Shown piece after piece: positions 1 through 33,018 of a stretch of 64,000 nt of DNA. The stretch comes from a bacterium. GTDB taxonomy: Bacteria; Patescibacteriota; CPR2; UBA1875; CAIMLA01. Positions within the stretch are counted from its first letter, which is position 1. Every line of letters begins with the position of its first letter. The DNA lies in assembly GCA_037129835.1 (NCBI GenBank), contig JBAXUE010000002.1, forward strand, positions 66,334-130,333, read 5' to 3'. The notes beneath the pieces are model-generated. The model was not told the origin of the DNA and did no database searches. It was given only the letters and a program-made list of their open reading frames with translations. Position numbers and translations under genes: made by a program.

Positions 1-953
1 GTAGCATTGTAATTCTTCTTTTGGTTTTTGTACCGGGACTTAAGTTTTCTCATAATGGTGCCTCGCGATGGATTAATATTTTTGGGATTCAGTTTCAGCC
101 TTCAGAACTGATGAAAATTAGTATGATTATATTTTTAGCGAGCTGGCTCGAAAAAAGAAAAAATGAAATCGGAGATTTTCAAAAAGTGGTAGTACCATTT
201 GCCGGTATCGTTATTTTAGTACTCGGCCTGATATTAATCGAACCAGATATGGGAACAGCTACGGTTCTTGCGCTTACAGCAGGGGTAATGTTTTTTGTAG
301 CTGGGTCCAAAATGTCACATGTTTTCGCAGCAGTGGGTACCGCTATCGGAGGAGTAATTGTTTTAATAGCTGCCGCTCCCTATAGAATGGCCAGGTTTAC
401 TATCTTCTTAAACCCTACAGCAGATAAGTCTGGTAGTGGTTATCAAATTTCGCAAGCGCTGGTGGCAATTGGAAGTGGCGGTTTGTTTGGGCTTGGGTTC
501 GGCAGAAGTCGACAAAAATTCAATTATTTACCCGAGGCAGCTACAGATTCGATTTTTGCTGTTATCGCTGAAGAGCTTGGACTAATCATTTCCTGCGCCA
601 TCGTCTTTGTTTTTTTGCTTTTTGGCCTTCGTGGTTATAAAATATCTAGGGGAGCACCTGATATGTTTTCCAGGTTGGTAGCTACGGGGATAACTACTTG
701 GATTATTTCTCAGGCATTTATTAATATTTTAGCGATATTAAGCCTAATGCCCCTTACTGGGGTGCCTTTGCCATTTTTTAGTTATGGCGGCACATCATTA
801 ATGATGATTTTGGCTAGTTGTGGAATATTATTAAATATATCAAAATCTGCAAATCAAGGAGGAAGCGATGAGAATAATAGTATCGGGCGGTGGAACTGGC
901 GGACATATTTCCCCAGTTTTAGCAGTAATAGGCGAATTACAAAAAAAAGATAG
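1..953 (+). CDS. ftsW: SEDS-family peptidoglycan polymerase FtsW/RodA (5' end outside window)
   Basis: Frame is open from base 3 (the listed start at 21 is only TTG). Polytopic membrane protein with SEDS hallmarks: RWINIFGIQFQPSELMKI, EPDMGTA, SGGLFGLGFG, LPEAATDSIFAVIAEELG, PLPFFSYGGTS. Followed by murG and ftsQ as in dcw clusters. Confidence 0.9.
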   Translation, partial: SIVILLLVFVPGLKFSHNGASRWINIFGIQFQPSELMKISMIIFLASWLEKRKNEIGDFQKVVVPFAGIVILVLGLILIEPDMGTATVLALTAGVMFFVAGSKMSHVFAAVGTAIGGVIVLIAAAPYRMARFTIFLNPTADKSGSGYQISQALVAIGSGGLFGLGFGRSRQKFNYLPEAATDSIFAVIAEELGLIISCAIVFVFLLFGLRGYKISRGAPDMFSRLVATGITTWIISQAFINILAILSLMPLTGVPLPFFSYGGTSLMMILASCGILLNISKSANQGGSDENNSIGRWNWRTYFPSFSSNRRITKKR

Positions 954-2058
954 TTCAGTTGAAGTTTTATATATTGGTTCTTCGGAGGGGCTAGAGAGCA
1001 AGATTATCCCTCAAACTGGAATTAAATTTGTCGAAATTCATTCAGGTAAATTTCGTCGATATCACAAAAATAAAATATTAAATATTATTGATCCCACTAC
1101 TATTTATAAGAATTTTGTAGATCTTATCAAATTCAGTAGAGGTTACTTCGAGGCTAAAGAAATTATTTCAGAATATGATCCAGATGTTGTTTTTTGCAAA
1201 GGGGGATACGTTAGTTTCCCAGTCGGACTGGCGGCTTCTTCATTGAAATACCCTCTCGTTATCCATGAATCTGACAGTATTATGGGTATGGCAAATAAGG
1301 CGCTAGCTAAAAGGGCAGACAAGGTTTGCGTTTCATATCCGCTCAAAAACTTCACTGATGTTCCAAAAGATAAACTTGTTTATTCTGGTAATCCAGTCAG
1401 AGGAGATATTTTCGAGGGAGATAGAGGTAAGGCTGTAGAGGAATTTAGCCTTGTAAGGACGCTTCCGACACTTTTAATAATTGGGGGTAGCCAAGGTTCT
1501 CTGGTTATTAATCAAGTCGTTTCTGAGGCGCTTAGGAGTTTATTGAAAAGATATCAAATTATTCACGTATCGGGGGAAAGAGATTACGATTGGCTGAGTT
1601 TTCAAGCCGGCAAGCTACCAGAGGATGTAAAGGCGAACTATCATTTATATAATTTTCTTTCTGGAAGTCTCAAGCACGCATACAAAGTATCTGATTTGGT
1701 TATTTCTCGGGCGGGTAATAACGTGATTTCCGAACTTGCAGTACTTGGTAAGCCAACTATCTTAATTCCACTTCAGTCCTCTGCTAATGACCATCAGGTT
1801 TCAAATGCAAAGATTCTTTCTAGAATGGGTGCTGCTATGTTGGTCAAGCAGGACAGCCTAACAGCCCAATCGCTTGAGCGGAAAATAAATTATTTATTTG
1901 ATAATAAGGAAGAGCTAGATGGACTTGCTAGGAAAATTTCGGAATTATCAGCACCCGAAGCTTCTAAAATAGTAGCAGATATTATTAACGAAGAAGGAAA
2001 TAAGTTTATTCAAGAAACAAGCTATGAAGAAAATGAAAATAAGTCAGAGGAGAAATAA
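868..2058 (+). CDS. murG: UDP-GlcNAc:lipid I N-acetylglucosaminyltransferase MurG
   Basis: N-terminal MRIIVSGGGTGGHISPVLAV glycine loop, IIGGSQGS, and ISRAGNNVISELAVLGKPTILIP C-domain motif. GT28 architecture and dcw context. Acidic C-terminal tail. Confidence 0.93.
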   Translation: MRIIVSGGGTGGHISPVLAVIGELQKKDSSVEVLYIGSSEGLESKIIPQTGIKFVEIHSGKFRRYHKNKILNIIDPTTIYKNFVDLIKFSRGYFEAKEIISEYDPDVVFCKGGYVSFPVGLAASSLKYPLVIHESDSIMGMANKALAKRADKVCVSYPLKNFTDVPKDKLVYSGNPVRGDIFEGDRGKAVEEFSLVRTLPTLLIIGGSQGSLVINQVVSEALRSLLKRYQIIHVSGERDYDWLSFQAGKLPEDVKANYHLYNFLSGSLKHAYKVSDLVISRAGNNVISELAVLGKPTILIPLQSSANDHQVSNAKILSRMGAAMLVKQDSLTAQSLERKINYLFDNKEELDGLARKISELSAPEASKIVADIINEEGNKFIQETSYEENENKSEEK

Positions 2059-2845
2059 TTCACGAAATATTCGAAGGGCTGTTCGTCAACCTTCTCTATA
2101 TTCAAGGACAGAAGAGCCAGCTCCTAAGCCATTCTCTTTCCGTTGGATAATTATCTTCGTTATTTTGTTGTTAATAACTGGGATTATATTTTTAGTATTT
2201 ATTTCTGACGTATTTAGGGTTAATAATGTGGTTTTTTCTCCTACGAAATACATTAGTAGGGAAGAGTTGGAAAAAACTAAGAATAATAATCAGACACTTT
2301 TTGATAATAATATTATTTCTTTTGGCTTTTTTGGTCTGGCGGGAAAGCTTGAGAAAGTGACTGGAGTTTCTAAAATTTCTGTTATTAGAAAAAGCAACCA
2401 TGACATCTATGTAAATATAAAGGAAGAATATCCTCTCTTGGTTTGGCAGACGATGAATAAAAAATATTTGGTCAATAACGATGGAATTATCTGGGCTAAT
2501 TTTGAAGATAAATATGCCAGTGTCCCGATTATAATTGATACCAAGAATGTACCCGTAGAACTGAACTCAAAGGTAATTCCGGGTACCTTTATCTCTTTTA
2601 TTACTGAACTACAGAATAATTTTCCAAAGAAAACCGCTAATACAATTATAAAAATGGAAGTTTTGGATATAATCAGCGATCTTAGGGTCACTACCAAAGC
2701 TGGCTGGTGCGTTTATTTTGATACATCGAGAACTGCCGGTAACCAGATCATAAGCTTGGGCAGAGTTCTAACCGAAGTCGCTGCTAAAAAGCAACCACTT
2801 GAATATGTCGATCTTCGGGTCAGAGACAGAATATTTTATAAGTAG
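2024..2845 (+). CDS. ftsQ: FtsQ/DivIB-like cell-division protein
   Basis: Basic N-terminus, single TM (WIIIFVILLLITGIIFLVFI), POTRA-like segment (FRVNNVVFSPTKYISREEL) and a beta-rich C-domain. Position directly after murG. Start could be 2024 or 2033. Confidence 0.7.
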   Translation: MKKMKISQRRNNSRNIRRAVRQPSLYSRTEEPAPKPFSFRWIIIFVILLLITGIIFLVFISDVFRVNNVVFSPTKYISREELEKTKNNNQTLFDNNIISFGFFGLAGKLEKVTGVSKISVIRKSNHDIYVNIKEEYPLLVWQTMNKKYLVNNDGIIWANFEDKYASVPIIIDTKNVPVELNSKVIPGTFISFITELQNNFPKKTANTIIKMEVLDIISDLRVTTKAGWCVYFDTSRTAGNQIISLGRVLTEVAAKKQPLEYVDLRVRDRIFYK

Positions 2846-2890
2846 GTTCGATGCTCGCTTCGGGGGAGAGGACCACAATATTTGTATAAT

Positions 2891-2912
2891 AATTTATTAA
2901 TATTAATAAATT
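2891..2912. repeat. perfect 22-nt AT-only palindrome AATTTATTAATATTAATAAATT
   Basis: The sequence equals its own reverse complement. It lies 46 nt after the ftsQ stop. Confidence 0.9.
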
Positions 2913-2955
2913 AACTTCTAGGTATAAACGTATAAATGCCATAATGTTAATTTAA

Positions 2956-2993
2956 CTAATTATTTGATAATAATACAATTATCAAATAATTAG
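2956..2993. repeat. perfect 16-bp inverted repeat (CTAATTATTTGATAAT / ATTATCAAATAATTAG) with 6-nt spacer
   Basis: Read directly from the sequence. The arms are exact reverse complements. Confidence 0.9.
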
Positions 2994-2999
2994 TATTTT

Positions 3000-3027
3000 A
3001 CAGTTCAAATAATATATTATGTTAAAC
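3000..3027. other. candidate dif (XerC/XerD) recombination site
   Basis: ACAGTTCAAAT-AATATA-TTATGTTAAAC. The right arm matches the E. coli dif XerD arm TTATGTTAAAT at 10/11, with an AT-rich 6-nt centre. It lies in the only convergent strand-switch gap of the window. The left arm is a weak match. Confidence 0.35.
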
Positions 3028-3456
3028 TATACATTTAACAATTTACTTGCAAAGAAAACTCCAGCCACATACTGCAGAGCTATTACAGATACAGAATAAC
3101 TTTCTCCAATATTTAGGCTTTGCAAAGATATAAACGATGTATTTTTATCGTTTTCTATGACCACTTACACCCCCAAGTCGATATAATCAAATAGTCGTCC
3201 AAGATATATTGTGCGACACAATGCTTCAAGCAGTTCTGGTAGGTAAGGGTGAGGCTATGGTAGTCATCTAAGTATTTAATTAGGTCGACCCATACCGTTT
3301 AGACTTAGGGCGCAGAGAAAAAAGGGGGAACTTCTTTTACTTTATAATGTAACAATTCTATTGTATTTTGATTAAGTAATTGAGTATTTTAAAAATAATC
3401 CCCCCAAAAAAAATTGGATATAATTTGTAATCATAAACGATAACTTAATATATTAA

Positions 3457-6453
3457 TTAAAACCGGATTTCTTCGCCTGGCTTTATCTCTTTAGTACTAC
3501 TGATGATTATTTTTTCATGTGGAAGTATCGTGGTTATGTCTTTAAAGTCACTAGGAGCTATCTCTCGTTGCTTTTTGTCGCTATGAGTACTGTTTGTATG
3601 TATTGTACTCGGTTTCGCCACTGTGACGATGATTTCTTTTATCTCAGTCTTTGTCTCCAATTTTGGTTTTTCAATGGGGGAATCCAGCTTCTTGGGTTCT
3701 ATATTTTTTGTATTTTCGGTAATTGCCTGTTTTAACTTATCTGCCAGCTGAGTGTTATCGTTTTTTACTTCACTCTTTCCCCTATTTAAATTTGAATTAG
3801 AACGAGAATTTGTGTTCTTTTCTTTATTGTTACTATTAAATTTGTTTTTACTTCTCTCATTATTGTCGTTATGATCATTACTACTATTATTGGAAATATT
3901 GGTATTACCGCTAGCGCTAGGTTTTTCTTTATCTGGTTGCGGAGTAACCATTTCTTTGTTAGCAGGTGGAATGTAATTAGGATTTGTAATAGGTCTATCG
4001 CCTTCGTTGGCATTCACGCCAGCGATTACCGAATCGATATTGTACCATTTCCGAATATCGTCTTCTACTTTCTTTTTTGGAGTACCGTATTTTTTTCGCG
4101 AAATAGCAATTACTATGCTCGTTAGATCTTCCGTTGGCTCTGCAGAGGGAATACTTTTTGCTGAGAATGGTGAGCTATTTACTCCATTTACTGGCATATT
4201 AAGGTATAAATGCCGATTGTCTAGATTGATAAGGTCATTCTGTGAAAATATAGGCTCAAATTCTTTTTCTAGAAAGCTAGCATCTGTTGCGCCCACCCTA
4301 AATGATATCAGAGTACCTACGTTGCCAAATACCGCGTCTCTAACCTCTTCCTCCATCTGTGCAACGTATTGGTTGGCCACAGCTAGGGAAAGATGGTATT
4401 TTCGGGCTTCAGAAAGAATGGTTCCAAAGGATTCTGTGGCAAAATTTTGAAACTCATCAACGTAAAGATAGAAGTCTTTCCTCTCTGATTCAGGAATAAA
4501 CGCTCTTTGCATGGCAGCGAGCTGGATTTTTGTGATTATTAATGAGCCAAGAAGTTCTGAGTTTATCTCCCCTATTTTGCCCGTTGATAGATCTACTAGT
4601 AATATTTTTCCCGTATCCATTATTTCTGAAAAGTTAACAGTGCTTTTTGGTTGACCAACAATATTGCGAATAGTTTCTGAAGCTGTAAATTGGCCAACTT
4701 TATTAAGAATAGGCGCTACAGTCTCAGTAGCCATTTTATCATTATAGGTAGAAAACTCTTTGAGCCAGAACATCTGTACTACTGGGTCAGTTACTTGGCT
4801 AACTACATTTTTGCGATAATTTTTATCGGTTAGCATTCTGACAATACCTAGCATAGTAGAGCCCTCAACTTCTGCTAGCGCTAGTACCGTGTGATTTAAG
4901 ACATATTCTAGCCTTGGCCCCCAGGAGAACCCAAACATTCTCTTCAGTACTGATATAAAGCCCTTTGCAGTCTCTTCACGCATTCCAGGGGGGCTTTCCA
5001 GGGGATTAAAACCTAGGGGAAACTCTTTATCAGAGGGGTTAAGATAAATAACATCATCTAGGCGCTCTTTGGGGATAAATTTAAGAATATTATCTATAGC
5101 CTCTCCATGAGGATCAATAAAGGCTACACCCTCCCCTCTTTGGATATCTTGTATCGCTAAACCTTCAAGAAGCCTAGACTTTCCTACTCCAGTTTTCCCG
5201 ATTATGTACATATGTCTTCGTCTATCATCTCTTTTGATCCCGAACAGTTTATCGCTATTTCGGAAAGTTGTAATCGCAAGGGGTGAAATGTCTTTATCGT
5301 TAATGTTTTCATCAGTAATGAAGGGCAAGCTTGATGGTGGTTCGCCTTTTTTCGAAGATGTCCATACGATATTGGGCGTTTCTACCGAAACATGTGGCAA
5401 GTGATATAAACTTGCAAGTTCTTCAATATTAAGATCATAGCCCTTGTCATTAAATAGTCTTGCCCGATAAGCGTTTAAGAATTCTTCACTTGTAAATAAA
5501 CCCTTCCCAGTAAAGCCATTTAAGTTTGTTGTATTAAATTGTTTAAAAGCACCAACAACGGCTTGAATTTTATCGGTAGCCTTTTCTCTGGACTTAGAAA
5601 GATATACAACCCTTATCATGACGCGATACCCGAGTTTGGCGCTCTTGTCTTCAATGGCTGTTAACTCAGTTTCTTCTGCATGAGAAAGTTTAGGCGCCTC
5701 AGGCTTAGCATCTTTTTTAGCTTCTACGGGTGCAACATTGAGCGCATTGAATATAAAATCTAGAGGGAGGGTGCCGGAGTTGGGTTTTATGGTTTTTTTA
5801 GACGCGATATATGAAAGAGCTTTTTTCCTCCAGTCGTCATTTTCTGGTTTTGCGAGTATTTGAATCCAAATTTGTTCATTTGGCTCATTGGTCATAGAAA
5901 GCATGCCCGTAATTCCTGCCAGCGGGTCAACATCAAAGTTCAAAAAAGTTTTTATTGGGTAAATATCATCTTTTGTAAGAAGTAATTCTGTTCCCGCAAT
6001 AGCATCTGGATTTTTATCACCGTCTACATCGGTTGTTTTTGAGTAGTCATTAACCACTGATATTTCCGCAGTCGGATATTGAGCATAGACTTGACCTTCT
6101 ACAAATTCTTTAATCTTCTTGGGCACCCAGATGAAAAATTCTATAGAATTTAACGTAGAGACGATTTCAAGGCTGAAATGTTCTTGTACGGTGGTTCCCT
6201 TTTTTTGTTCGCTTTTTGAATGAAGAATACCGTGTAGGGCTGCGAACATCATTTCTGCTGCCACAGGGCCTTTCTCATTATTTTTAGGTATTTTTATTGA
6301 TAAGACAGTATGTTCAATTTCGTTTACGTATGAAGCTTTTTTAAAATTTTTCCATGAAAAAAATAGAACTAGTGGTACTATAAACCACCAAGTCCAAACT
6401 ACAACACTCCACATTCCTCCAAGTATCGCTAAGCTAAGTTCCTGCAAAAACAT
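3457..6453 (-). CDS. membrane-anchored TraD/VirD4/HerA-FtsK-like P-loop ATPase with low-complexity C-terminal tail
   Basis: N-terminal TM (WSVVVWTWWFIVPLVLFFSW), Walker A IIGKTGVGKSRLLE, Walker B FYLYVDEFQNF. The last ~190 aa are N/S/K-rich low complexity. Its start overlaps the upstream stop by 1 nt (TAATG). Confidence 0.75.
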   Translation of the reverse strand: MFLQELSLAILGGMWSVVVWTWWFIVPLVLFFSWKNFKKASYVNEIEHTVLSIKIPKNNEKGPVAAEMMFAALHGILHSKSEQKKGTTVQEHFSLEIVSTLNSIEFFIWVPKKIKEFVEGQVYAQYPTAEISVVNDYSKTTDVDGDKNPDAIAGTELLLTKDDIYPIKTFLNFDVDPLAGITGMLSMTNEPNEQIWIQILAKPENDDWRKKALSYIASKKTIKPNSGTLPLDFIFNALNVAPVEAKKDAKPEAPKLSHAEETELTAIEDKSAKLGYRVMIRVVYLSKSREKATDKIQAVVGAFKQFNTTNLNGFTGKGLFTSEEFLNAYRARLFNDKGYDLNIEELASLYHLPHVSVETPNIVWTSSKKGEPPSSLPFITDENINDKDISPLAITTFRNSDKLFGIKRDDRRRHMYIIGKTGVGKSRLLEGLAIQDIQRGEGVAFIDPHGEAIDNILKFIPKERLDDVIYLNPSDKEFPLGFNPLESPPGMREETAKGFISVLKRMFGFSWGPRLEYVLNHTVLALAEVEGSTMLGIVRMLTDKNYRKNVVSQVTDPVVQMFWLKEFSTYNDKMATETVAPILNKVGQFTASETIRNIVGQPKSTVNFSEIMDTGKILLVDLSTGKIGEINSELLGSLIITKIQLAAMQRAFIPESERKDFYLYVDEFQNFATESFGTILSEARKYHLSLAVANQYVAQMEEEVRDAVFGNVGTLISFRVGATDASFLEKEFEPIFSQNDLINLDNRHLYLNMPVNGVNSSPFSAKSIPSAEPTEDLTSIVIAISRKKYGTPKKKVEDDIRKWYNIDSVIAGVNANEGDRPITNPNYIPPANKEMVTPQPDKEKPSASGNTNISNNSSNDHNDNNERSKNKFNSNNKEKNTNSRSNSNLNRGKSEVKNDNTQLADKLKQAITENTKNIEPKKLDSPIEKPKLETKTEIKEIIVTVAKPSTIHTNSTHSDKKQREIAPSDFKDITTILPHEKIIISSTKEIKPGEEIRF

Positions 6454-7553
6454 TATTCCCTCCCGTTAGAAATGGTATAAGTAGCCCGAGATATTCGCCT
6501 AAATCGATCTCTTTGGAGATTGAGTAATATCGTCGTTTCTTTTACAACCCTTCGTTTCAATACCTCTATTATAATATCGTCTTTATGCATAGGTTCGCCA
6601 GATGTAATTAATATTTCTGCTATTACATCCTCTACCACGCCAGAAGTATAACCCCACTCCTTGAGCGCATAGATACCTCGACCGATTAAAATAAATCTGT
6701 CATCACGTATAAGTTCATTGTGTACGGCTTGTCTGGTAACGGTTTTTTTCTTAGTTCCAACATCTTGAATCTTTTTTGATATTTCAGAATAATGAAGAGG
6801 TTTTTTGTGTTTCTTTAAGATGTAATATGTTTTATCCTTAATACTTTTAGGATTAATTTCACGCCATTTGGTAAGGCCGAAGTGTCCTGCTTCGGTTTTG
6901 ATGATTTCCTTAGCGGTCGATAATATCGCGATAATATTTTTAGTATCTGTATTTGCTTCAGGGATAGTCATTTTTATTTCTCGTATAAGCTTTACTTCTT
7001 CTATGGGATTTTGTTCTTTTTCGAGGATACTAATAGCTGCAGCACTAATCGTTTTAATTAAGGGTATTGTAATTGGTTCGACAAAATACGATTTTTTAAA
7101 GTTATCAGCGTCAGAGAGCGTTGAGATGTTGTTACTGCAAGAGATCAAAAAACTTAGTTGATATCGTTGTTTTGTAGTAACCACAGCGGTGAAAATATCC
7201 TTTTCTAGGTCGCCAGAAACGATGATGCCACCGTTATTGATTATAATATCTTTAATGATTATATATATTTCTTGAGCTCGCATGTCGGTTTTGCCGAAGT
7301 CGCGAAGCTTACCAATGGCGTTCTTCTCTATTTGTCGTACGCGTTCCCTAGTAATGCCTAGACTCTTACCTATTTCTTCGAGAGTTTTTGGTTTTAGGCC
7401 ATCAACACCAAAGCGTTCGCTCAACACTTGTCTTTCGCGATCTTTTTTTATTTTTGCAGAATTCAAAAAAAAATTAACCTCGTCTGTTGCATTAAATTTT
7501 GCAACCGAAGGTATCTCTACTGTATTCGTGTTTTTTTCTTGTTTTCTAGGCAT
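6453..7553 (-). CDS. sigma-70 region-4 HTH plus HARE-HTH domain protein
   Basis: [28 protein letters not shown] is a sigma-70 region 4.2 HTH. The C-terminal [12 protein letters not shown]...[17 protein letters not shown] resembles the HARE-HTH of RNAP delta-like proteins. Confidence 0.65.
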
Positions 7554-8477: not shown

Positions 8478-9287
8478 CTATTTAAACAATCTTTTATAAT
8501 TTAGCCAGCTAGAAAGTTCGCTTTCATTTTGAATGTATCCACGATATTCTATATTTTCTCCGAGATGTATGCCTAGGTGCAGGTGTTTTCTCTCCCCCCC
8601 ACTATTAGTACTGTAGGCTGGTGCCAAATTTGCTATTAAACTTTTTTTGTTTAAAATGTCGTTAACTTTTAGGTTTGATGAAGCAATATCAAGATGACCG
8701 TAAAGCACGGTTACTACTTGTTCTCCCACGTTGCAATCTTGGATAACAGCTCCTCCATATCCTTCTATTGGTCCGATTAGACGTATTTTTCCGTTACATA
8801 TTGCGGTTATTGGCACCGCGATATCTGCCTCATTAGATAGCGTTTCAAAATCAATGCCGGTATGAAATCCTATAAAATTCTCGGGCTGTATTGGTGATTC
8901 AGTAGGCGTGACATAGATTCCAAAAGGTTTTTTTGTTATTCTGGATAAAGAATTTGAGATGGGTTCGCCTAATGTCCCTATATTCGATGTCGTCGTCGGT
9001 ATTGGTGTAGGCGTTGGCGTTAACATCGGCGTCACACTAGGAGAAGATTTTGCATTAATGCTTCGTTGTAAATATACCCTACCTTTTACGACGCATTTTC
9101 GTGGATTGCTCATCTGAACTGGGATGCCAGCCTTTATACAACTTTCATAACTATTTATTTGGCTTAAGGTAAATTGTTTATATGCGTATACTAGAACAAT
9201 AAATATAATAAAAATTATTAATAATAAAAAATAATATATTCGCTTATTGTGTATCTTAATTCGTAAAAATTTACGTTTCCTATACAT
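8478..9287 (-). CDS. membrane-anchored M23 (LytM-type) peptidoglycan endopeptidase
   Basis: N-terminal TM, a Pro/Thr linker (TPMLTPTPTPIPTTT), and M23 metal ligands GFHTGIDFE and KHLHLGIH. Confidence 0.85.
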   Translation of the reverse strand: MYRKRKFLRIKIHNKRIYYFLLLIIFIIFIVLVYAYKQFTLSQINSYESCIKAGIPVQMSNPRKCVVKGRVYLQRSINAKSSPSVTPMLTPTPTPIPTTTSNIGTLGEPISNSLSRITKKPFGIYVTPTESPIQPENFIGFHTGIDFETLSNEADIAVPITAICNGKIRLIGPIEGYGGAVIQDCNVGEQVVTVLYGHLDIASSNLKVNDILNKKSLIANLAPAYSTNSGGERKHLHLGIHLGENIEYRGYIQNESELSSWLNYKRLFK

Positions 9288-10584
9288 CTTGCTTTCTTTC
9301 TTCTAGCCTTTTTTTGATCTCTAACTCTGCACCATTTGAGCTCGGTTGATAATATTTCTTGTGCTTTAATTCTGGTGGTAAATATTCTTGTTCAACGAAG
9401 TGTCCAGGATAATCATGAGGGTACTTATACCCCTTCCCTTTTCCTTGACTTTTATCAAAACCTGTTGGTGCATTTACGATATGTTTAGGCACACCGCTGA
9501 ATTTTTCTTCTCGAACATCACGAAGTGCATTATCGATAGCAAGATATGAGGCATTCGACTTTGGTGCACTGGCGAGATATATAACACATTGTGCGAGATT
9601 GATTCTTGCTTCTGGAAGGCCGATTTTTGTAACTGCATCGAAGGTGGTATTCGCAAGCACTAGTGCCATCGGTGCTGCATTGCCGATATCTTCAGAGGCA
9701 AAGACCAACATTCTGCGAGCAATAAACTTAGGATCTTCACCGCCCTCTATCATTCTTGCTAGCCAGTAGATTGCTGCGTCAGGGTCACTACCACGCATTG
9801 ATTTGATAAAAGCCGAGATAATATCGTAGTGCTCGGCGCCCTGTTTGTAACTACTGATGAATCTTTTACTAATTGCTTGTTGTAAAATATCTTGAGTAAT
9901 TTTGTTATTCAATAATTTGGAATTTGACGCGATTTCTAATGAGTTTAGGGCCACTCTTGCATCACCGCTAGAATATTCAGCCAGAGTCTCGAGTGCTTTC
10001 TTGTCTATCTTGATTCCCCTGTCCCCAAGACCGTTTGTTTTATCCTTTAGTGCAGCCTTAATAATGTTTATTATATCTATTTCTTCAAGTGGTTTTAGTT
10101 CGAATAGTTTCGACCGAGACATGATGGCAGAGTTGATTTCAAAACCTGGATTCTCGGTCGTCGCGCCTATCAAAATAATAGTACCGTTCTCAATATGAGG
10201 AAGAAAACCGTCTTGTTGAGATTTGTTAAAACGATGTATTTCGTCAACGAAAAGAACAGTTTTTTTGTCATAAAGCTCTCTGTTTTCTTTTGCTTCTTTG
10301 ACTACTCTACGGAGATCGGCTACACCGCTAGTAACTGCGCTAAATTCTTCGAAATTGCTCTTTGTTTGGTTTGCGATAATCCGTGCGAGAGTAGTTTTGC
10401 CAGTTCCCGGTGGCCCCCATAGGATTATCGAAGAGAGAGTATCATTTTCGATAATTTGTCGTAGAAGTTTCCCTTCACCGACGATGTCCTCCTGACCAAA
10501 AAAGAGATTAAAATCAGTGGGCCTCATTCTGTCAGCAAGAGGTTTGTGAGAATTATTTTTATTAAAGATATTTGGTATTTCCAT
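9280..10584 (-). CDS. rarA: replication-associated recombination protein A (AAA+ ATPase)
   Basis: ILWGPPGTGKTTLAR, VLFVDEIHRFNK, LIGATTENP, and MgsA C-domain RGSDPDAAIYWLARM / SEDIGNA. Confidence 0.93.
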   Translation of the reverse strand: MEIPNIFNKNNSHKPLADRMRPTDFNLFFGQEDIVGEGKLLRQIIENDTLSSIILWGPPGTGKTTLARIIANQTKSNFEEFSAVTSGVADLRRVVKEAKENRELYDKKTVLFVDEIHRFNKSQQDGFLPHIENGTIILIGATTENPGFEINSAIMSRSKLFELKPLEEIDIINIIKAALKDKTNGLGDRGIKIDKKALETLAEYSSGDARVALNSLEIASNSKLLNNKITQDILQQAISKRFISSYKQGAEHYDIISAFIKSMRGSDPDAAIYWLARMIEGGEDPKFIARRMLVFASEDIGNAAPMALVLANTTFDAVTKIGLPEARINLAQCVIYLASAPKSNASYLAIDNALRDVREEKFSGVPKHIVNAPTGFDKSQGKGKGYKYPHDYPGHFVEQEYLPPELKHKKYYQPSSNGAELEIKKRLEERKQDV

Positions 10585-19861: not shown

Positions 19862-20234
19862 ATGTCCACTCTCCTTATCGTTCGAATTCTAATGAGAACT
19901 ACAGATACAGGTTATATGTAGTTTTCATAGGATCTACGTAATCCAACCATCAGTTCGAAAAGAAAGAGAGTAAAGTAACGAAGTTATAATAAATAACTTC
20001 CGGTATCGGCTTGTTGTTATTTATTATATTTGAGCTACTGCAACGAATGATACTTTAAAGAATCTGTTAGGTTGGGCTTTTTGCACCACTTTTATTAAAA
20101 AAGTGGCATATATTATAATATAACGTTTAAAAGATATTCGCTAAAGTCGTAATTGCTCGACCTCGAAGATAGTCGAGTACACGGTACCAAGGCGATTTTT
20201 CATTGGGATTAACGCTTAAATATACCGCCCCTTT

Positions 20235-20330
20235 GTCATCCCTGGTCGCACTTGTCCTCCAGTAGCTTGTTAGCGAAGTAGGAACCCCAGTCTGCCCGAG
20301 CCGTACGCTCGTGTCGGCCAGGGGGATCTC
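20235..20330 (+). repeat. GTCATCCCTGG...CCAGGGGGATCTC module with ~55-nt insert
   Basis: Same ends as the short modules at 21275 and 34750-34779. The internal AGTAGC..GCGAAG..AAC resembles 21328-21343. Confidence 0.75.
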
Positions 20331-20331
20331 T

Positions 20332-20619
20332 CTAGTTCCCTTTTATAAATTCCAAAAGTTTCCTTTTAGTTTCCTCTGGGTCATTCGTATATATAAAGAT
20401 ATACTGTCTCGTCGTATTCCCACGGACGACGCATTTAAACCCACTATCGATGTCGAGAAGCTTGATGTTGCGTATTCCCCTGCCGATAACCTTGATTTCA
20501 CCGAGAGAAATCTTACTCACTTCTGGATATTTGGATGCAGCATCGACAAAATCCTCCGCAGCATCGATGATGGTGGTGTGACTGCCGGCATATTTGCTGC
20601 CAGAGCGGTGCGGACTCAT
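20332..20619 (-). CDS. hypothetical protein (95 aa)
   Basis: Its start overlaps the upstream peptidase stop by 4 nt (ATGA). No family assigned with confidence. Confidence 0.55.
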   Translation of the reverse strand: MSPHRSGSKYAGSHTTIIDAAEDFVDAASKYPEVSKISLGEIKVIGRGIRNIKLLDIDSGFKCVVRGNTTRQYIFIYTNDPEETKRKLLEFIKGN

Positions 20620-21254
20620 TTCTTATTCTCTCTGGCCTTCTCCCACCGTATTTCTAGCTCTTGTTTTACTTCAGTCTCGAAATCCAAAATTGATATGCCG
20701 TATACTTTATTAAAATCCTTTGCAAAGCCCTTTTCTGTCATATCTGGGCCCATATATTTGATCATTTCTAGTAGCTTATCTTTACCGTAGTCTCGGACTA
20801 ACTTGTTTACCATCAGGATTCCCCAGCGATATGTTTGCTGATCACAGCTAGAATAATGCTTTGCACAGACATTTTCGTCAGTTTCTACTGGGAGATATGT
20901 TTTCTGTCCCGCCATGTGTTCGGCTAGTCCCTCGACAAACCAAATAGGCTCCCCGTTGTATCTTCCGACGATATGATCAAAGTACCAGTGGCTCATCTCG
21001 TGGTGGACTACTTTCCAAAAATCCCCCTTTTTATGCGGGGTGATGTCTTCCAAAACACTTTCGTCGATAAAGGCCAGTCCCCTGCTATGCGTAGTCGCCC
21101 TGACCCAGTCCTCTGTTTTCCTACCTGTGAATTCGTCCATCTCAGCCCTAGTAAATAGAAACTTTATCGGCGGATCAGGGACTTTATCAGCATCGGTGAG
21201 CTCGAAGAACTCTCGACACAGTTTTTGTATTTCTTTTATCTTCTTTGTATTCAT
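20616..21254 (-). CDS. Peptidase_MA-like HExxH zinc-metallopeptidase-fold protein
   Basis: VVHHEMSHWYF followed about 20 aa later by WFVEGLAEH (gluzincin-type third ligand). No signal peptide. Paralog of 56359..56931. Confidence 0.65.
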   Translation of the reverse strand: MNTKKIKEIQKLCREFFELTDADKVPDPPIKFLFTRAEMDEFTGRKTEDWVRATTHSRGLAFIDESVLEDITPHKKGDFWKVVHHEMSHWYFDHIVGRYNGEPIWFVEGLAEHMAGQKTYLPVETDENVCAKHYSSCDQQTYRWGILMVNKLVRDYGKDKLLEMIKYMGPDMTEKGFAKDFNKVYGISILDFETEVKQELEIRWEKARENKK

Positions 21255-26873: not shown

Positions 26874-28229
26874 CTAGTCTCTGCCACCCCTTTGTCTATT
26901 ACAATATCGGTGGACTAATCTGGCGTTTGATAGCTTGGTTTCTCCACCTCGCCAGTAAAACTCAATATGATCAACCTCAGAATCGTCTAAAACACGTATT
27001 TTTTGACCACATATTTTACAGGTTGAATCAGTGTCAAAAAGTTGCTTTTTCTCGTCGTGTGAATAGTTTCTTGTCTGTGACTTGGAATAATCTACGATTT
27101 TCCTCAAAGATTCTAGCCATTTCTCAAATCTGTATTGCACATTTTCTGGCTTATCTGTTGATGACTTCAAGGAATCTTCAAATTTCTTGACAGCTGTCAT
27201 TAAGTGTAAAAGTTCTTCGCGAATAGAATCAAGGTGAGGGATAATTTCGTTTTTTTGATACATCGTGAAACCCCACATTACGATGTCAAATAAGCCTTTG
27301 TTTATTTTTGTATTTTCCCACTTTCCGTTTGAGTCAGATTCTTCGCCTACAACAAACCTACGAAAAGCATTGTCACCAAATACTGAGCGAGTTAGGTCAA
27401 CAGATTTTTTAAAAACCTCACGAAGTTCTTTTGCTTTTTCTTCATTTAGATTTTGGTTATTATGCATTTCTTGATTTAGAAACTGTCTCATGGGTGCTTT
27501 GTATTTTAAGTATGAGTTATTATAAAAAGCGAAAAATCGTAATAAAAGCTCTCTATCAATCATTCTTATGGACATAGCTGGTGATTTTAATAATGTTTGA
27601 TATTCTTTATTTTCGGCAAGCTCGATTAGTAAGTCGTTATATTTTCCACGGTAAATACAGTTTCTGAGTTCCTGGTCGTTCAGCTTCACTGCGCCAGTAT
27701 TTAGTCTTTCGAAAACCTCAAATCTAACATTGATATCAGAATCCTTTTTGATTCTGATAAATGGTATAAGATAAGAATCAACTTTTCGCTGTGTTATTTT
27801 GTCTAGTTCCTTAAATGATTTCCTGTTTAGTCCTGTCAAAACCTTTAATCCCGAAAGGGCAAATTTTTCGTGCTTGTCTTGAAAGTACCCGTCCTTAAAA
27901 GAAAAGATAGAAATTAGTCTTTGTTGCCCGTCTATTACTGATTGGGTACCGTCATCTTCTTCGGCAGTGTATATTACTGGTATCGGGACTCCCAAGAGAA
28001 TAGATTCTATCAGTCTACTAGCTTTGCTTTTATCCCAGACATATCCTCTTTGAAAGTATGGTCTTACATCAAGTTCCCCTGCCTTGTAATCAGAATATAA
28101 GTCTTTTATGGCTCTACTGGGGTTGTCAAAGGTAATTCTTCTTTCATCCTCAGGTATATCAAAAACCAGTGGTTCGTTGTCATTATTGTCTTCTTCAAGA
28201 ATAACGTCATTATTATCTATTACCGTCAT
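26874..28229 (-). CDS. DUF262 (ParB-like NTPase) plus C-terminal HNH nuclease, GmrSD-like
   Basis: RPYFQRGYVW...VIDGQQRLISI (DUF262 DGQQR motif). C-terminus CKICGQ...VDHIEFYWRGGETKLSNARLVHRYCN (HNH). Confidence 0.8.
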   Translation of the reverse strand: MTVIDNNDVILEEDNNDNEPLVFDIPEDERRITFDNPSRAIKDLYSDYKAGELDVRPYFQRGYVWDKSKASRLIESILLGVPIPVIYTAEEDDGTQSVIDGQQRLISIFSFKDGYFQDKHEKFALSGLKVLTGLNRKSFKELDKITQRKVDSYLIPFIRIKKDSDINVRFEVFERLNTGAVKLNDQELRNCIYRGKYNDLLIELAENKEYQTLLKSPAMSIRMIDRELLLRFFAFYNNSYLKYKAPMRQFLNQEMHNNQNLNEEKAKELREVFKKSVDLTRSVFGDNAFRRFVVGEESDSNGKWENTKINKGLFDIVMWGFTMYQKNEIIPHLDSIREELLHLMTAVKKFEDSLKSSTDKPENVQYRFEKWLESLRKIVDYSKSQTRNYSHDEKKQLFDTDSTCKICGQKIRVLDDSEVDHIEFYWRGGETKLSNARLVHRYCNRQRGGRD

Positions 28230-28285
28230 AATTCTCCTTTACTTTGATCTATCGTTTTTGCTTATCAAGTTTTTTCATTGGTTCG

Positions 28286-29449
28286 CTATTTATTTCCCTT
28301 GGCACGGTTATGTGTTTTACAAAGCATCTCACAGTTATTGATATCTGTGGCGCCACCTTTACTCCATGCTGTAACATGGTCAGCATCCATTTCGGTAAGA
28401 CTCCAGATTTTTGTCTTGTTGGCGTCGTGACCGATTACGCAATTCGGACAATTTGAAATGCCTTTAGATTTAGCGGTCGTAGTTTGTGACGAATATACCG
28501 CTTTTTTAGTTGCCTCATCAAAAACACGAACTTCAAGTAGTTTCTTTTCATTAGACCCACCTAGAATATATTCAAATATTCCCTTTCGATTTTTTATGTA
28601 TGGGTCTCCATAAAGCTTTTGTACGGCCAATGACACTTTTGCAGGATCATAGGCTTTTGTATGAAATTTTTTATAAAGTCGACCCCAATCCAGGCCTCGC
28701 ATTTCACTTTCAACATCTATAAATACACCAGAAACCCATTCTATTACGCTTTTAAAATATGCTTTTAACTCAGTGATATTGTTATCAAAGCGGTGACGAC
28801 TCATATATTCGCCGTTATTACCACAACTAATCCAGTCTAAGGCTCTCTCTAGAAATTCCTGTCTGTTGGCACTGCCAGTTACATAAGCACTCCATTTTTG
28901 AATGTTGGCATTTTGACTATTACTGAATTCCTCTTTACCAAGTGTGACAAATGGACCAGAATAAACCGCATTTAATAGTTCTTGATTATTTAGCGGTACA
29001 CCGGCAATGTTTATGGTTTTGAACCACTCTTTTATTTCACTTTCTTCGCCCTCGCATTCGTATATAAGAAGCTCAGCGTTCATGATTTTAGCCTGCTTAT
29101 CTGAAGCAATTCCACTGAAGTATTGTTCCATGCCGTTTTCGTCTTTTATGGCAAATTTGTTATAAACGAATCGTCCGATACTAGTGATACGTTGTTGTCC
29201 GTCCAATACTTCTAAGTTGTCAGTGCTCACTTTGTTAAAATATATTAAGCCCAGCGGATAGTCTTTGAGTAATGAGTCAATGACCGCGACGTCTTTTTTA
29301 CCATCAGCATAGATGTAGTTACGTTGATACTCTGGCTGAATAGTGAGCTTGCCAGAGAGTCCGAACAAACCCTTGCCTTCATGCTGGTTATACACAAATC
29401 CTTCACATATATTTCTTACGGTTATGTTAGTTACTAAAGTAGTTTTCAT
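28286..29449 (-). CDS. DUF262 (ParB-like NTPase) plus C-terminal HNH nuclease
   Basis: [11 protein letters not shown]...[12 protein letters not shown]-terminus CPNC...[26 protein letters not shown]. Its start overlaps the methyltransferase stop by 4 nt. Confidence 0.8.
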
Positions 29450-30648
29450 GCTATACCTTTCTTGTGTTTGATTAAAATCCTAGCGAATGGAACCACAACA
29501 GTTTCATCTTTTATCATATATAAATCACCGTTCACCGTTCCTCTTTTTTGCACTTCTTTCCGATACTTTTTATGCTCAGGTTTATACGGTTTGACTCCGA
29601 TGGATAAGCCCAGGTTTGCTATTCCCAAACCAATAATATCAAATTGTTCAGGAGAATATTTGTCAAGGAAACTAATTGGCACGCCCATAATACCCTTAAA
29701 GTCTCCAGGAATATGTTTAACGAAAGGAACTTCTATTGCATTAAAATTATCATAATTATCAAAAGATCTTTTAGTGCCAAATTTTATAACGTCTGACAAT
29801 TTCATTAATGGTAAGAATTCGTGAAGCCTTCCGTGGTCAAGATTAGTAAACCAGCGAACACCTTGGACTCTCGTGATGTAAACTTTCTTACCATTTTCAT
29901 CCGTCCGTATTTCGCGTACTTGCTCTAGATTGGCAATATCTTCTGGTATTTCATAAAACATTGCTCCACCATTCACTTTATGATTATTGCCAAGCCAAAT
30001 CTTGTTATCCTTAATTAATGGAAAGACTTCTTTATAAGTAATAGCGTTCATACTACCAATTATTAAGAACTTTTTTTTGTACTCAATAAGTTGTTTTAAG
30101 TACTCGCGGAACAAACTGAAAGGCGGGTTAGTTACCACTATATCAGCCTGCTTTAGTAGCTCAACACACTCGTTGCTCCGAAAATCTCCGGCTGCGTATT
30201 TATCATCGCCAAGTAAAAGCGAATAAGCATTATTGTCATGTTCTAAAAGCCATTTCACATCATTAAGGTTGGTTATGCCATCTTTATTAAGGTCTGAAAC
30301 CTCATTGATCTCAATTTTAAATGCTTTTTTATTTTTTCGATTAGAAAGTGTCTTATTTTTACCCATTTCTTCGAAACCCGGTATTTGTATCTGTGTTTGT
30401 ACAATCGGCGAACCAACGTAGCTTGTCGTTATCAACTTTTTTAAGCCAAATTCCTTAAATTTATTTGCAAAATACTTGAAGAAATTACTTTCAAATGGGT
30501 CATCGCAGTTGCAATAGACTATCTTGCCGCGAAAAACATCAGGATCGTAATCAATGTAGGCTTGGATTTCCTTCTGAATATCTTGATATTGAGTATAAAA
30601 CTCGTCGTTTTTAGTCTTTTTTGCGTTATGTAAATTTTTTTGTGCCAT
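29446..30648 (-). CDS. EcoRI-methylase-family N6-adenine DNA methyltransferase
   Basis: N-terminus [25 protein letters not shown] is typical of that family. Catalytic motif [11 protein letters not shown]. Confidence 0.8.
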
Positions 30649-31134: not shown

Positions 31135-33018
31135 TTATCTTAGCCTATAGTTTGCCTTTTTAAGGCTATCTTTAAAATAGTAAACAAATCTACACTTTCC
31201 TGCCTCGTTTCTGATCAACATAATATGGTGCTTTGCATTGGGAAAAGCGACCATTTCTGTACCACCAAAAACACCCCTACTTCTGTATAAAAAGTCCTTA
31301 TATTCAAGGTCATCTGTTTTTGAAACCATTCTTATTGGATGGAATGCTATGTCCTTGTCTGCAGTCATTCCACTGTATACAATAAAATTAATTAGAAATA
31401 GAGGCACCACACTGCCACCGTAAAGCCGGTTAACTTCTTTTAGCTTTTGGATATTACTTATTCCTTTTTTACTAATAATATCTGAAAAAATGCTAGCGTA
31501 ATCAAACATAGGAAAATACATTTCGTTTTTGTCAGTTAATATATTCTTCTTGTCGATACTAGAACTAGAGGCGGGCTTAACTCTTTGGCTTGAAATCCAA
31601 ACTGGTGCTGCACCCTCGTCATTGCTTTTTAATGATTTTAAAGATAAATCATGAAAAATAAAACAACGGTGCCAGTCCTCGAAAAGTGATTTTGGTATTG
31701 AGAGTTCAAAGAAGTCTTTGTATTTGCCTCTACTGCCGAACATTCTAGCTCTTTGGATATAAGTGTCTTGTTGAATCCTGTGTTTAGCAGTTCGTGTGAA
31801 GAACATGCCCAAAAGATTCTTTATTGTTAAGCCCCGGGAAATTATATTTCCACCAATTATTATTGTAAAAAGAGCTGGTGCATTAGTTGGGTCTTCTTCC
31901 ATTTTATTATTTGAGTTAATAACATAAACTTTTTTCTTATTAACATAATCTTTGACAAATGTTGTCACTTCTTTTGCTGCTATATCACCAAATCTTTCTT
32001 CTGCAATACTGTGTATTATTCCAAGGTAACGTTCCCATTTGGGACCCTTATTTGTATCTGCCAGTGCGTCAAAAAAATTATCTACAATTTTTTTATCTCT
32101 TTCGTGTTCACTTTTAATGCCACTTGTATGAATAATAAAAGCAAAATTAACATCATCATTATTCGCATTTTGTTCTACGAGCTTTTCCTTGTACTCGGGA
32201 TTTATATTTAAATAAGAAGCATTAACTAAAAAGCTTGCTAAAGCTTCATGTAAATATGATGGGTCATCTCCATTCTCAGGAAGTATATTCACCATGTATT
32301 CAACTTCGGTTATTTTTTCTAGATTAATTGGAAAAAAAAAGTCTTTGCCTACATAATTTTTATGAGAATCAAAAAATACCCATTCTTCAGATAAATTATC
32401 AAAAGTATTGTTAAGATCTAGTCGTGCTGGAGTGGCTGTTACCCCAACGTAGGTGCCGTCTCTTCGAAGTAATTTGCCGATTTCGTTATTAATTGCCGTT
32501 ACTTCATCTTTATTTATTTTAGAATTTGGGCTGGCATAATCAGCCTCGTCATCAATTATTATTAAACCACTTCTATTTCTTAGTTTTTCGTTTAAATTTG
32601 TTAAATTGCGGATATTTTTCTTTGAAAAAATTATAACCTGCCCATCATTTAAGTCTTCTTCAAGAAAAGCCCTGCTAGACATGGTATCTGGTGTAGGGTC
32701 GATACCTGAACTAGTAAATCTTTCGAGATTTTGAAGTTCAAGCTTTTTATTGTCATTCATGAGAATAACAATAGTGTTGTTGCCAATATCAAGTAATTTT
32801 GCTGTAAGCGATATCATCATTTCGGTTTTGCCACTTTGTGGCTCACCGTAAATCACAAATGATGTTATACCCTTTTGAATTTTTTCTACTGAATCTGAAA
32901 CAGCGTTTTCAATTTGAAAAGTATCAATACCCTTTTTATCTCTAAGGAAATTAATTCTTTTCTCATATCGGCTGTTTCTTCTATTTTCTGAGTCTCTATA
33001 ATCATCTGGATTAAACAT
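31135..33018 (-). CDS. Z1-domain protein with SF2-helicase-like ATPase core
   Basis: GEPQSGKTE (Walker A), IIIDDEADYAS (DEAD-like), VGVTATPARL, GGNIISRGLTIKNLLGMFFTR, DTYIQRARMFGSRGKY. SD GGAGAG before the ATG. Confidence 0.8.
   Translation of the reverse strand: MFNPDDYRDSENRRNSRYEKRINFLRDKKGIDTFQIENAVSDSVEKIQKGITSFVIYGEPQSGKTEMMISLTAKLLDIGNNTIVILMNDNKKLELQNLERFTSSGIDPTPDTMSSRAFLEEDLNDGQVIIFSKKNIRNLTNLNEKLRNRSGLIIIDDEADYASPNSKINKDEVTAINNEIGKLLRRDGTYVGVTATPARLDLNNTFDNLSEEWVFFDSHKNYVGKDFFFPINLEKITEVEYMVNILPENGDDPSYLHEALASFLVNASYLNINPEYKEKLVEQNANNDDVNFAFIIHTSGIKSEHERDKKIVDNFFDALADTNKGPKWERYLGIIHSIAEERFGDIAAKEVTTFVKDYVNKKKVYVINSNNKMEEDPTNAPALFTIIIGGNIISRGLTIKNLLGMFFTRTAKHRIQQDTYIQRARMFGSRGKYKDFFELSIPKSLFEDWHRCFIFHDLSLKSLKSNDEGAAPVWISSQRVKPASSSSIDKKNILTDKNEMYFPMFDYASIFSDIISKKGISNIQKLKEVNRLYGGSVVPLFLINFIVYSGMTADKDIAFHPIRMVSKTDDLEYKDFLYRSRGVFGGTEMVAFPNAKHHIMLIRNEAGKCRFVYYFKDSLKKANYRLR

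Follow-up and report, generated by a model that had tools for sequence, protein, structure and literature searches.

A conserved dif-like 28-bp element at the convergent ftsQ/DUF8128 junction of Patescibacteria and in viral contigs

We analyzed a 64-kb stretch of DNA from the patescibacterial contig JBAXUE010000002.1 (hereafter the window), in which the rightward genes ftsW, murG and ftsQ and a long leftward gene block face each other across an intergenic gap, and found in this gap a conserved 28-bp element, TAGTCGTCCAA-GATATA-TTGTGCGACAC, at positions 3192-3219. We lean towards reading this element as a divergent dif-type recombination site that lies at the replication terminus and is also used by phages: a dif-type core at the terminus that phages have copied is one hypothesis that accounts for both the host and the phage data. 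The recombinase, its reaction and the equation of the convergence point with the actual terminus are the parts of this reading that we infer.

The strongest feature of the element is its conservation. When the gap was aligned with those of relatives, four of them at first, a 24-mer at positions 3194-3217 (GTCGTCCAAGATATATTGTGCGAC) proved to be invariant in all. The consensus of the family is ATGTCGTCCAA-GATATA-TTGTGCGACAC, and the copy in the window begins with TAG. Among 20 distinct host sequences the 28-mer is 91% identical, compared with 39-41% for the adjoining 28 nt on each side, and conservation is confined to 28-30 bp in genomes whose FtsQ proteins are only about 50% identical. The site occurs once in the window when up to 3 mismatches are allowed (about 73 kb were read of a genome that likely measures 0.7-1 Mb), and one copy is present in each of 7 genomes of Genome Taxonomy Database (GTDB) species and in each of 10 metagenome contigs. 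The record titles of the GTDB species representatives that carry it name either Candidatus Saccharibacteria or Patescibacteria group. All relatives to which FtsQ homologues led have the site once, between ftsQ and the gene of a DUF8128 protein and in the same orientation, and both the asymmetry of arm positions 7-9 and the orientation relative to these two genes are retained in every locus. The arms form an imperfect palindrome around the AT-rich 6-bp centre, with 8 of 11 symmetrical positions in the family consensus and 7 of 11 in the window copy. Because palindromes of like quality are common in such gaps, the case for the site rests on its conservation and not on symmetry alone. Altogether, the 28-bp layout of 11-6-11, the single occurrence within the DNA covered and the conservation among relatives are what is looked for in a dif site.

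Deeper relatives, reached through three homologues of the DUF8128 protein, carry variants of the same element. These read AAGTCGTCCAA-GATATA-TTGTGCGACAT in L043 (DUF8128 protein 65% identical), ATGTCGCATAA-GATACA-TTGTACGACAT in L044 (58% identical), and GTGTCGCATAA-GATACA-TTGTGCGACAT in L085, a contig of candidate division CPR2 (49% identical); the right arms of the last two are summarized by TTGTRCGACAT. All three sites lie in the same convergent ftsQ/DUF8128 gap in the same orientation. Arm symmetry reaches 9 of 11 positions in L044 and L085, and in every lineage the arms are mismatched at positions 7-9, where changes occur without compensation. The dif site of Escherichia coli is GGTGCGCATAA-TGTATA-TTATGTTAAAT and that of Bacillus subtilis is ACTTCCTAGAA-TATATA-TTATGTAAACT. 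Read on the other strand, the L085 site is ATGTCGCACAA-TGTATC-TTATGCGACAC, and that of L044 likewise contains TGTATC followed by TTATG. The two variants thus share CGCATAA, TGTATC and TTATG, which are inner features of canonical dif, CGCATAA recalling the XerC arm; on this strand the XerD arm is matched at 7 of 11 positions by TTATGCGACAC of L085 and at 8 of 11 by TTATGCGACAT of L044. In the gaps of both, the best match to E. coli dif is the conserved site itself. The likeness to the XerC/XerD-dif system of Proteobacteria and Firmicutes therefore includes, besides these inner motifs, the length of 28 bp, the 11-6-11 layout, the AT-rich centre, the single copy and, within the stretch read, the location at a point of gene convergence and skew shift. 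As a separate observation, a plasmid of Pseudonocardia broussonetiae (NZ_CP053566.1; L103, 4001-4028) contains ACGTCGCAGAA-GATACA-TTGTGCGAACT in an unannotated gap; it matches the CPR2 core at 22 of 23 positions (BLAST E 0.3) and may be a chance match or a related actinobacterial plasmid recombination site. A scan of the PLSDB plasmids and GenBank phages for the site returned chance-level matches only.

The original prediction had also placed a dif-like site in this gap, and in this general form it holds, the conserved 11-6-11 element being such a site. The 28-mer that it had singled out, however, is another one (ACAGTTCAAATAATATATTATGTTAAAC, positions 3000-3027, + strand), 165 bp from the far better conserved element. 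We confirmed that the right arm of this 28-mer agrees with the XerD arm of E. coli dif at 10 of 11 positions; its centre is AATATA, and it is single-copy in the window at up to 3 mismatches. In addition, only 41 of 3000 shuffled versions (1.4%) of the 611-bp, 29% GC gap contained an equally good site, defined as an arm with at least 10 of 11 and a total of at least 18 of 28 matches to E. coli or B. subtilis dif. The right arm, as TTATGTTAAAY, has one exact match where 0.14 are expected per 64 kb, and with one mismatch 5 were found for 5.8 expected, that is, a number due to chance. The match to E. coli dif amounts to 18 of 28 positions in total, the left arm contributing 4 of 11 and forming no palindrome with the right arm. 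The prediction that this 28-mer would recur in relatives failed: it is unconserved in an alignment with four of them, it is absent from the gaps of all relatives examined, and the closest relative (L003, FtsQ 84% identical) has a deletion across its left arm and centre. The AT-rich gaps of relatives moreover give 16-18 matches of 28 to canonical dif at unrelated positions, and values of 17-18 are routine in them. The 28-mer at 3000-3027 was rejected as dif, being unconserved and similar to dif by chance in AT-rich DNA, and we give next to no credence to its being a functional site bound by XerC and XerD.

The surroundings of the conserved element were largely as first described. The genes ftsW, murG and ftsQ all read rightwards up to position 2845, and every un-nested open reading frame (ORF) of at least 120 amino acids between 3457 and 63585 lies on the - strand (Table 1). 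The FtsQ protein of the window has itself no Pfam match; its 41 homologues contain POTRA_1/FtsQ_DivIB_C domains and are named FtsQ by JGI. The exact MurG protein was located on ENA contig k141_20016 (372,584 bp), and locus L001, taken from there, extends the + strand block by about 9 kb leftwards with rplA, mraZ, rsmH, ftsI, murF and mraY. Approximately 12 kb of + strand genes thus meet 61 kb of - strand genes at the gap. Left of the gap the GC skew amounts to +0.12 to +0.14, right of it to -0.03 to -0.06, and in the stretch read the cumulative G-C maximum falls at window position 4254, about 1 kb from the gap; the convergent switch and the sign change of the skew, which is confounded with the coding strand, lie within 1 kb of each other. 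Fifteen relatives have over 3 kb of sequence on the left side (L001, from the same genome as the window, being counted besides), and in 14 of them the left-hand skew exceeds the right-hand one. The junction at which ftsQ and the DUF8128 gene converge is retained from Saccharibacteria to candidate division CPR2, and in most relatives its gap measures 385-837 bp. The claim that two replichores meet here is borne out as far as it concerns a long-range convergence, which is conserved in many independent assemblies, and the convergence point is probably the actual terminus.

Table 1. Genes and sequence elements around the convergent gap (window coordinates).
Feature	Position	Strand	Basis and remarks
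ftsW	21-953	+	Pfam FTSW_RODA_SPOVE, E 2.9e-88; 5' end cut by the window edge or the ORF call
murG	868-2058	+	Pfam Glyco_transf_28 N and C domains
ftsQ	2024-2845	+	Closes the rightward dcw block; domains of homologues
Intergenic gap, convergent	2846-3456		611 bp, 29% GC
Perfect inverted repeat, 17 bp, 6-nt loop, then TATTTT	2955-2994	+	Sequence and RNA fold
Semi-conserved box GGCTTTGCAAAG..ATAA	3116-3133	+	Alignments
ATGACC box	3157-3162	+	Alignments; about 30 nt left of the site; also in CPR2
Conserved dif-like site TAGTCGTCCAA-GATATA-TTGTGCGACAC	3192-3219	.	Conservation, 11-6-11 layout
Left arm of the site	3192-3202		
Centre of the site	3203-3208		
Right arm of the site	3209-3219		
DUF8128/TrwB-like P-loop protein, 998 amino acids, membrane-anchored	3457-6453	-	Opens the leftward block; type IV coupling protein-like
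Sigma70 region 4 and HARE-HTH protein, 366 amino acids	6453-7553	-	Pfam and synteny

The same core is found in phages. A 22-mer of it matched the viral contig IMGVR_UViG_3300020045_005581, which we reassembled from five overlapping loci into a complete phage contig of 48,920 bp with 34.5% GC. The phage site, GTGTCGTCCAA-GATATA-TTGTGCGACAC, agrees with the host consensus at 27 of 28 positions, the clade-specific TCC included, and its flanks are unrelated to those of the hosts. It is the single copy in this phage and lies in a 1.8-kb stretch without ORFs of 130 amino acids or more, between a leftward early and a rightward late gene block. The phage is a tailed one and encodes a large terminase, a capsid protein, a probable portal and a probable tail protein of 1280 amino acids, and it also has genes for a holin, a lysozyme, a CHAP protein, NinB/NinG, an RNA ligase and a polynucleotide kinase. 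No tyrosine recombinase was detected by tblastn on the whole contig or by Pfam and PHROGs searches with approximately 40 ORFs, searches that distant ones could escape. A degenerate version of the core 22-mer that covers the host variants matched 18 viral contigs with one site each, the 17 besides the 48.9-kb phage having variant cores. The chance expectation for these matches is about 0.1, an estimate extrapolated from a scan with a 16-mer, 13 of whose 14 matches lacked extended similarity, and conservation among the viral matches extends to the G and C that border the search pattern. One of these contigs (L086, 43.8 kb, 48% GC at the locus) carries a XerD-like ORF (5977-6834) 2.7 kb from its site (9571-9598); the 286-amino-acid product is 33% identical to E. 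coli XerD. This recombinase has about 60 close homologues, all on contigs of up to about 43 kb and many on contigs of 36-43 kb, and among its more distant relatives (32-36% identical) are recombinases from Patescibacteria chromosomes that have the XerC/D domain pair. The group looks like a phage family with Xer-type integrases, members of which may use this family of sites.

Two further features of the viral sites were observed. Contigs L088, L093 and L098 contain a perfectly palindromic version, GAGTCGTACAA-GATATA-TTGTACGACTC, located 230 bp upstream of a 121-amino-acid ORF and terL, and a TTAACAGGGG(T) motif, in one orientation or the other, precedes several of the remaining viral sites.

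Mobile elements with a host recombination core are known. The integrative mobile elements exploiting Xer (IMEX) include CTX-phi, TLC and the gonococcal island, and plasmids have Xer sites such as cer and psi. Like these, the phages combine a dif-type core of the host with unrelated flanks, and the complete phage has the host variant and no recognisable integrase. They differ in that known IMEX are mostly filamentous or small phages whereas the present ones are tailed phages with terminase genes, that no integrated copy between two sites was found, and that at least one phage family here has its own XerD-like integrase.

One host locus differs from the others on one side of the core. Contig L042 (353 kb) continues beyond ftsQ and the site with a holin-like ORF and with genes for HNH endonucleases, a CHAP endolysin (PHROG E 1.6e-30), a lectin-fold protein and a protein of 1151 amino acids, and within 8 kb it has no DUF8128 gene. 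The left flank of the core is colinear with those of relatives and the right flank is not, whereas the other relatives have weak colinear similarity to one another from the first base to the right of the core. From the sequence, this pattern fits a junction at the core. No homology was found between the phage-like genes of L042 and the L019 phage. L043 has a 3.8-kb insertion on the ftsQ side, and because it lies beyond the conserved left-hand boxes it is not core-mediated. The metagenome contigs of four relatives (L010, L004, L015 and L018) end about 0.1-1.1 kb from the site. The 258-kb contig L010 ends 105 bp past it, and the same sequence in L042, from another sample, runs into the phage-like genes. 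Contig ends near the site may reflect population heterogeneity at this locus.

In the reading that we favour, the gap between ftsQ and the DUF8128 gene would be the meeting point of the two replichores, i.e., the terminus region, where one or two tyrosine recombinases of the Xer family would attach to the arms and carry out strand exchange across the centre. Dimeric chromosomes would be resolved by this reaction late in the cell cycle. Given the near-symmetry of the arms, the recombinase is likely to be a single one, comparable to XerH on difH or XerS on difSL. Phages would probably use the same core with the host recombinase or a phage-encoded Xer-like one, either for integration or for multimer resolution. 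The single-recombinase systems XerH/difH of Helicobacter and Campylobacter, XerS/difSL of streptococci and lactococci, and XerA/dif of archaea resemble the present site in having a near-palindrome with matched arms and a 6-bp centre, a lineage-specific sequence and a location at the terminus, which is the probable location of the present site. The difH site consists of two matched palindromic domains around a unique 6-bp centre (PMC3325230). In these systems the recombinase gene adjoins the site, whereas here the neighbours are ftsQ and a type IV coupling protein (T4CP)-like gene, and neither difH nor difSL has sequence similarity to the conserved site. A xer gene beside the site, as in the case of xerH or xerS, was considered and rejected, there being none in the 64 kb or in the 20-kb loci of relatives. 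Patescibacteria chromosomes do encode XerC/D-type recombinases with two domains (P0255, P0262 and P0263).

Several observations weigh against a dif-type recombination site at the terminus. Searches with Pfam and tblastn found no tyrosine recombinase in the 64-kb window or in the fetched Saccharibacteria loci, and the window has no FtsK (PF01580, FtsK_SpoIIIE). A prophage with the site at both ends was not found, and the fetched DNA of L042 and L043, which does not include the far end of L042, contains no second site or half-site. The arms are also atypical for XerC and XerD, since the two are versions of one sequence and the right arm, TTGTGCGACAC, agrees with the canonical XerD arm (consensus TTATGTTAAAT or TTATGTAAACT) at only 6 of 11 positions. 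A published criterion for dif asks that more than 4 of the 6 pairs formed by positions 7-12 with 17-22 be complementary (Kono et al. 2011, PMC3025954); the window site has 3 of 6 and the CPR2 site 4 of 6, the symmetry being strongest instead in the outer GTCG...CGAC. The boxes at 3116-3133 and 3157-3162 are conserved in the host flanks, where they would be superfluous for a bare dif. Finally, two observations, on the skews and on the position of the viral sites, are taken up below with the explanations that they bear on.

The conserved boxes, which suggest a larger nucleoprotein region, and the neighbouring genes bring up the alternative that the 28-mer is a binding or loading site for a protein other than a recombinase, copied by phages for the same host protein. 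Candidates for such a protein are the products of the two adjacent genes, the T4CP-like DUF8128 ATPase and the sigma-r4/HARE-HTH protein, by analogy with the clt site of Streptomyces traB or with an operator. The 998-amino-acid protein has the Pfam domains TrwB_AAD_bind, TraG-D_C and DUF87 besides PF26449 (DUF8128), its top match in PDB is TrwB, it ends in a long N/S/K-rich tail, and it has more than 7000 homologues in bacteria of the candidate phyla radiation (CPR). The gene of the sigma70-r4/HARE-HTH protein is directly upstream of the DUF8128 gene at every locus compared. From Saccharibacteria to CPR2, the DUF8128 stop codon is followed by the site at a distance of 70-410 bp in nearly all genomes; the dyad symmetry of the site would suit a dimeric or hexameric binder, and in the phage it occupies a divergent early/late control region. 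The clt site, recognized by the FtsK-like TraB, is likewise a cis site directly downstream of the gene of a membrane-anchored ATPase of the FtsK/T4CP superfamily, but it is made of 8-bp direct repeats on conjugative plasmids whereas here there is one chromosomal, dyad-symmetric 28-mer, so that the analogy is positional only. We judge a binding site of this kind to be distinctly unlikely. Its linkage to the DUF8128 gene is broken in L042, the 11-6-11 layout with AT-rich centre and the CGCATAA/TTATG inner arms of the deeper lineages are specifically recombinase-like, and one unique site per genome at the convergence point is how dif behaves. As an observation on the two genes themselves, the pair is conserved in CPR bacteria and always convergent on ftsQ from Saccharibacteria to CPR2.

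Regarding the skews, the coding strand is rich in both A and G on both sides of the gap, and they are therefore confounded with gene strand. They are thus largely a coding-strand effect that adds little beyond gene orientation, and the terminus is placed mainly by the orientation of genes over about 73 kb. This leaves room for the explanation that the convergence is a deeply conserved operon boundary, between the dcw genes and topA-DUF8128, and not a terminus, the site being unrelated to replication. The same gene pair is convergent even in CPR2, so inherited synteny could explain the geometry, the skews follow the coding strand, and the view covers a small part of the genome. We regard this explanation as unlikely, although it is one to be kept in mind, because genes are almost completely co-oriented throughout the 61 kb of one block and the 12 kb of the other, and this co-orientation is kept through about 45 kb of strain-specific DNA, including defence genes, on one side. 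Such co-orientation and such variable DNA are both typical of replichores and terminus-proximal regions, and a unique dif-like site is expected at the terminus (PMC3025954).

Regarding the viral sites, terL follows the site at a distance of 0.2-2.3 kb in at least six loci (L019, L088, L093, L098, L095 and L100). In all of these but L019 a small ORF stands before terL, and the site is 0.2-0.7 kb upstream of that ORF; in most other viral loci it is upstream of a large ORF (490-660 amino acids in several) that points away from it. Cos sites usually lie just upstream of terminase genes. The element could hence be a packaging signal of the cos or pac type, or a relic of one, the host copies being phage-derived DNA. 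Partial two-fold symmetry is typical of cos nicking sites such as lambda cosN, and the distance between the site and a contig end is 150-660 bp in several short viral contigs. The ends of contigs never coincide with the site, however, and in the complete phage the ORF-poor 1.8-kb stretch is an obvious place for any cis site. Furthermore, cos is not known as a conserved single-copy feature of host chromosomes, whereas the host copies stand at one fixed junction of core genes across a phylum-level divergence, with non-homologous flanks and without phage genes around them, which argues for selection in the host. A packaging signal is for these reasons quite improbable in our view, although its fit with the position in phages keeps it among the rivals, and a dif-type site remains the reading that we favour.

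The core can also be folded as a hairpin (-8.6 kcal/mol, z -2.4), many relatives have a -10-like box about 80 nt upstream of it, and in some genomes ORFs of 25-35 codons cross the site. The block could in that case be an RNA element (part of a small RNA or a bidirectional terminator hairpin) or a small-protein gene, which we consider very improbable. Rfam, with E values up to 10, and ARAGORN for tRNA and tmRNA gave no match in the gap. In RNAalifold predictions from 16 sequences, the palindrome and a 3-bp stem were all that appeared; the covariation term was -0.12, and the reverse strand gave the same result. The arm positions vary between Y and R independently, giving C.A as well as U.G combinations, and positions 7-9 are uncompensated. 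A known or novel structured RNA was rejected, there being no family and no consensus structure beyond the palindrome. The ORF that runs from the ATG of the ATGACC box through the site is intact in some genomes; as read from the alignment, it is interrupted by a stop or lacks its start in 7 of 13 genomes (the window, L006, L010, L011, L012, L016 and L018), and a small ORF through the site was likewise rejected. All third-codon positions are invariant, which also argues against a coding sequence, and the phage has just the 27-28 bp core in common with the hosts.

More broadly, the 28-mer might be a cis element found throughout the CPR, a locus for chromosome-end processing common to hosts and tailed phages, in either of two versions that we put forward jointly as a speculation with low odds. 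In the first version, it would be the substrate of a minimal, single-recombinase Xer system hijacked by tailed phages without an integrase, which if true would make these the first tailed-phage IMEX. In the second, it would be the recognition site of the neighbouring and universally conserved T4CP-like DUF8128 translocase, which if true would be the CPR counterpart of FtsK at the terminus.

We found no paper on dif, Xer or any other terminus marker in Saccharibacteria or CPR bacteria, and none that contains the sequence; TM7 is not mentioned in a survey of dif in 16 phyla from 2011 (PMC3025954). A conserved single-copy site at the terminus would aid the closing and orienting of metagenome-assembled CPR genomes and the estimation of replication rates, for which the positions of origin and terminus are needed. 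The phage copies, with their lineage-specific variants, offer a way to assign phages to CPR hosts by sequence. Should recombination be confirmed, the site would be a natural landing site for genetic tools in cultivable Saccharibacteria. The symmetry of its arms, which is atypical, points to a simplified Xer system in these reduced genomes.

The gap contains other elements as well. The inverted repeat that begins about 110 nt past the ftsQ stop codon folds with -17.2 kcal/mol (z -8.3) and, although its stem is A/T-rich throughout, is probably the hairpin terminator of the dcw operon; the closest relative, L003, also retains an inverted repeat. In relatives, the semi-conserved box has the form GGCTTyAyAnAGCC-ATAAT, a small inverted repeat with a -10-like (CATAAT-like) hexamer; its 3-bp stem shows a few compensatory changes, and the window copy has no stable fold. 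Many relatives also share a purine-rich stretch that lies about 20 nt rightwards of the site. None of these flanking features, the two boxes and the purine-rich stretch, is present in the phage copy.

Farther into the leftward block, about 45 kb (window positions ~10.6-54 kb) separate mgsA (9280-10584) from topA (54127-56289), two genes that are adjacent or nearly so in L043. This stretch encodes two GmrSD-like HNH nucleases (26874-29449), an EcoRI-type methyltransferase (29446-30648), a Z1/SNF2 protein (31135-33018), a GIY-YIG protein, a Pif1-like helicase, a DUF2130 protein and a P-type ATPase. Its content looks like that of a variable or defence region near the terminus, and all its genes are still co-oriented. 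In another relative (L007, Saccharibacteria), a heliorhodopsin gene (PF18761) was found at 19878-20663, 9 kb from the junction.

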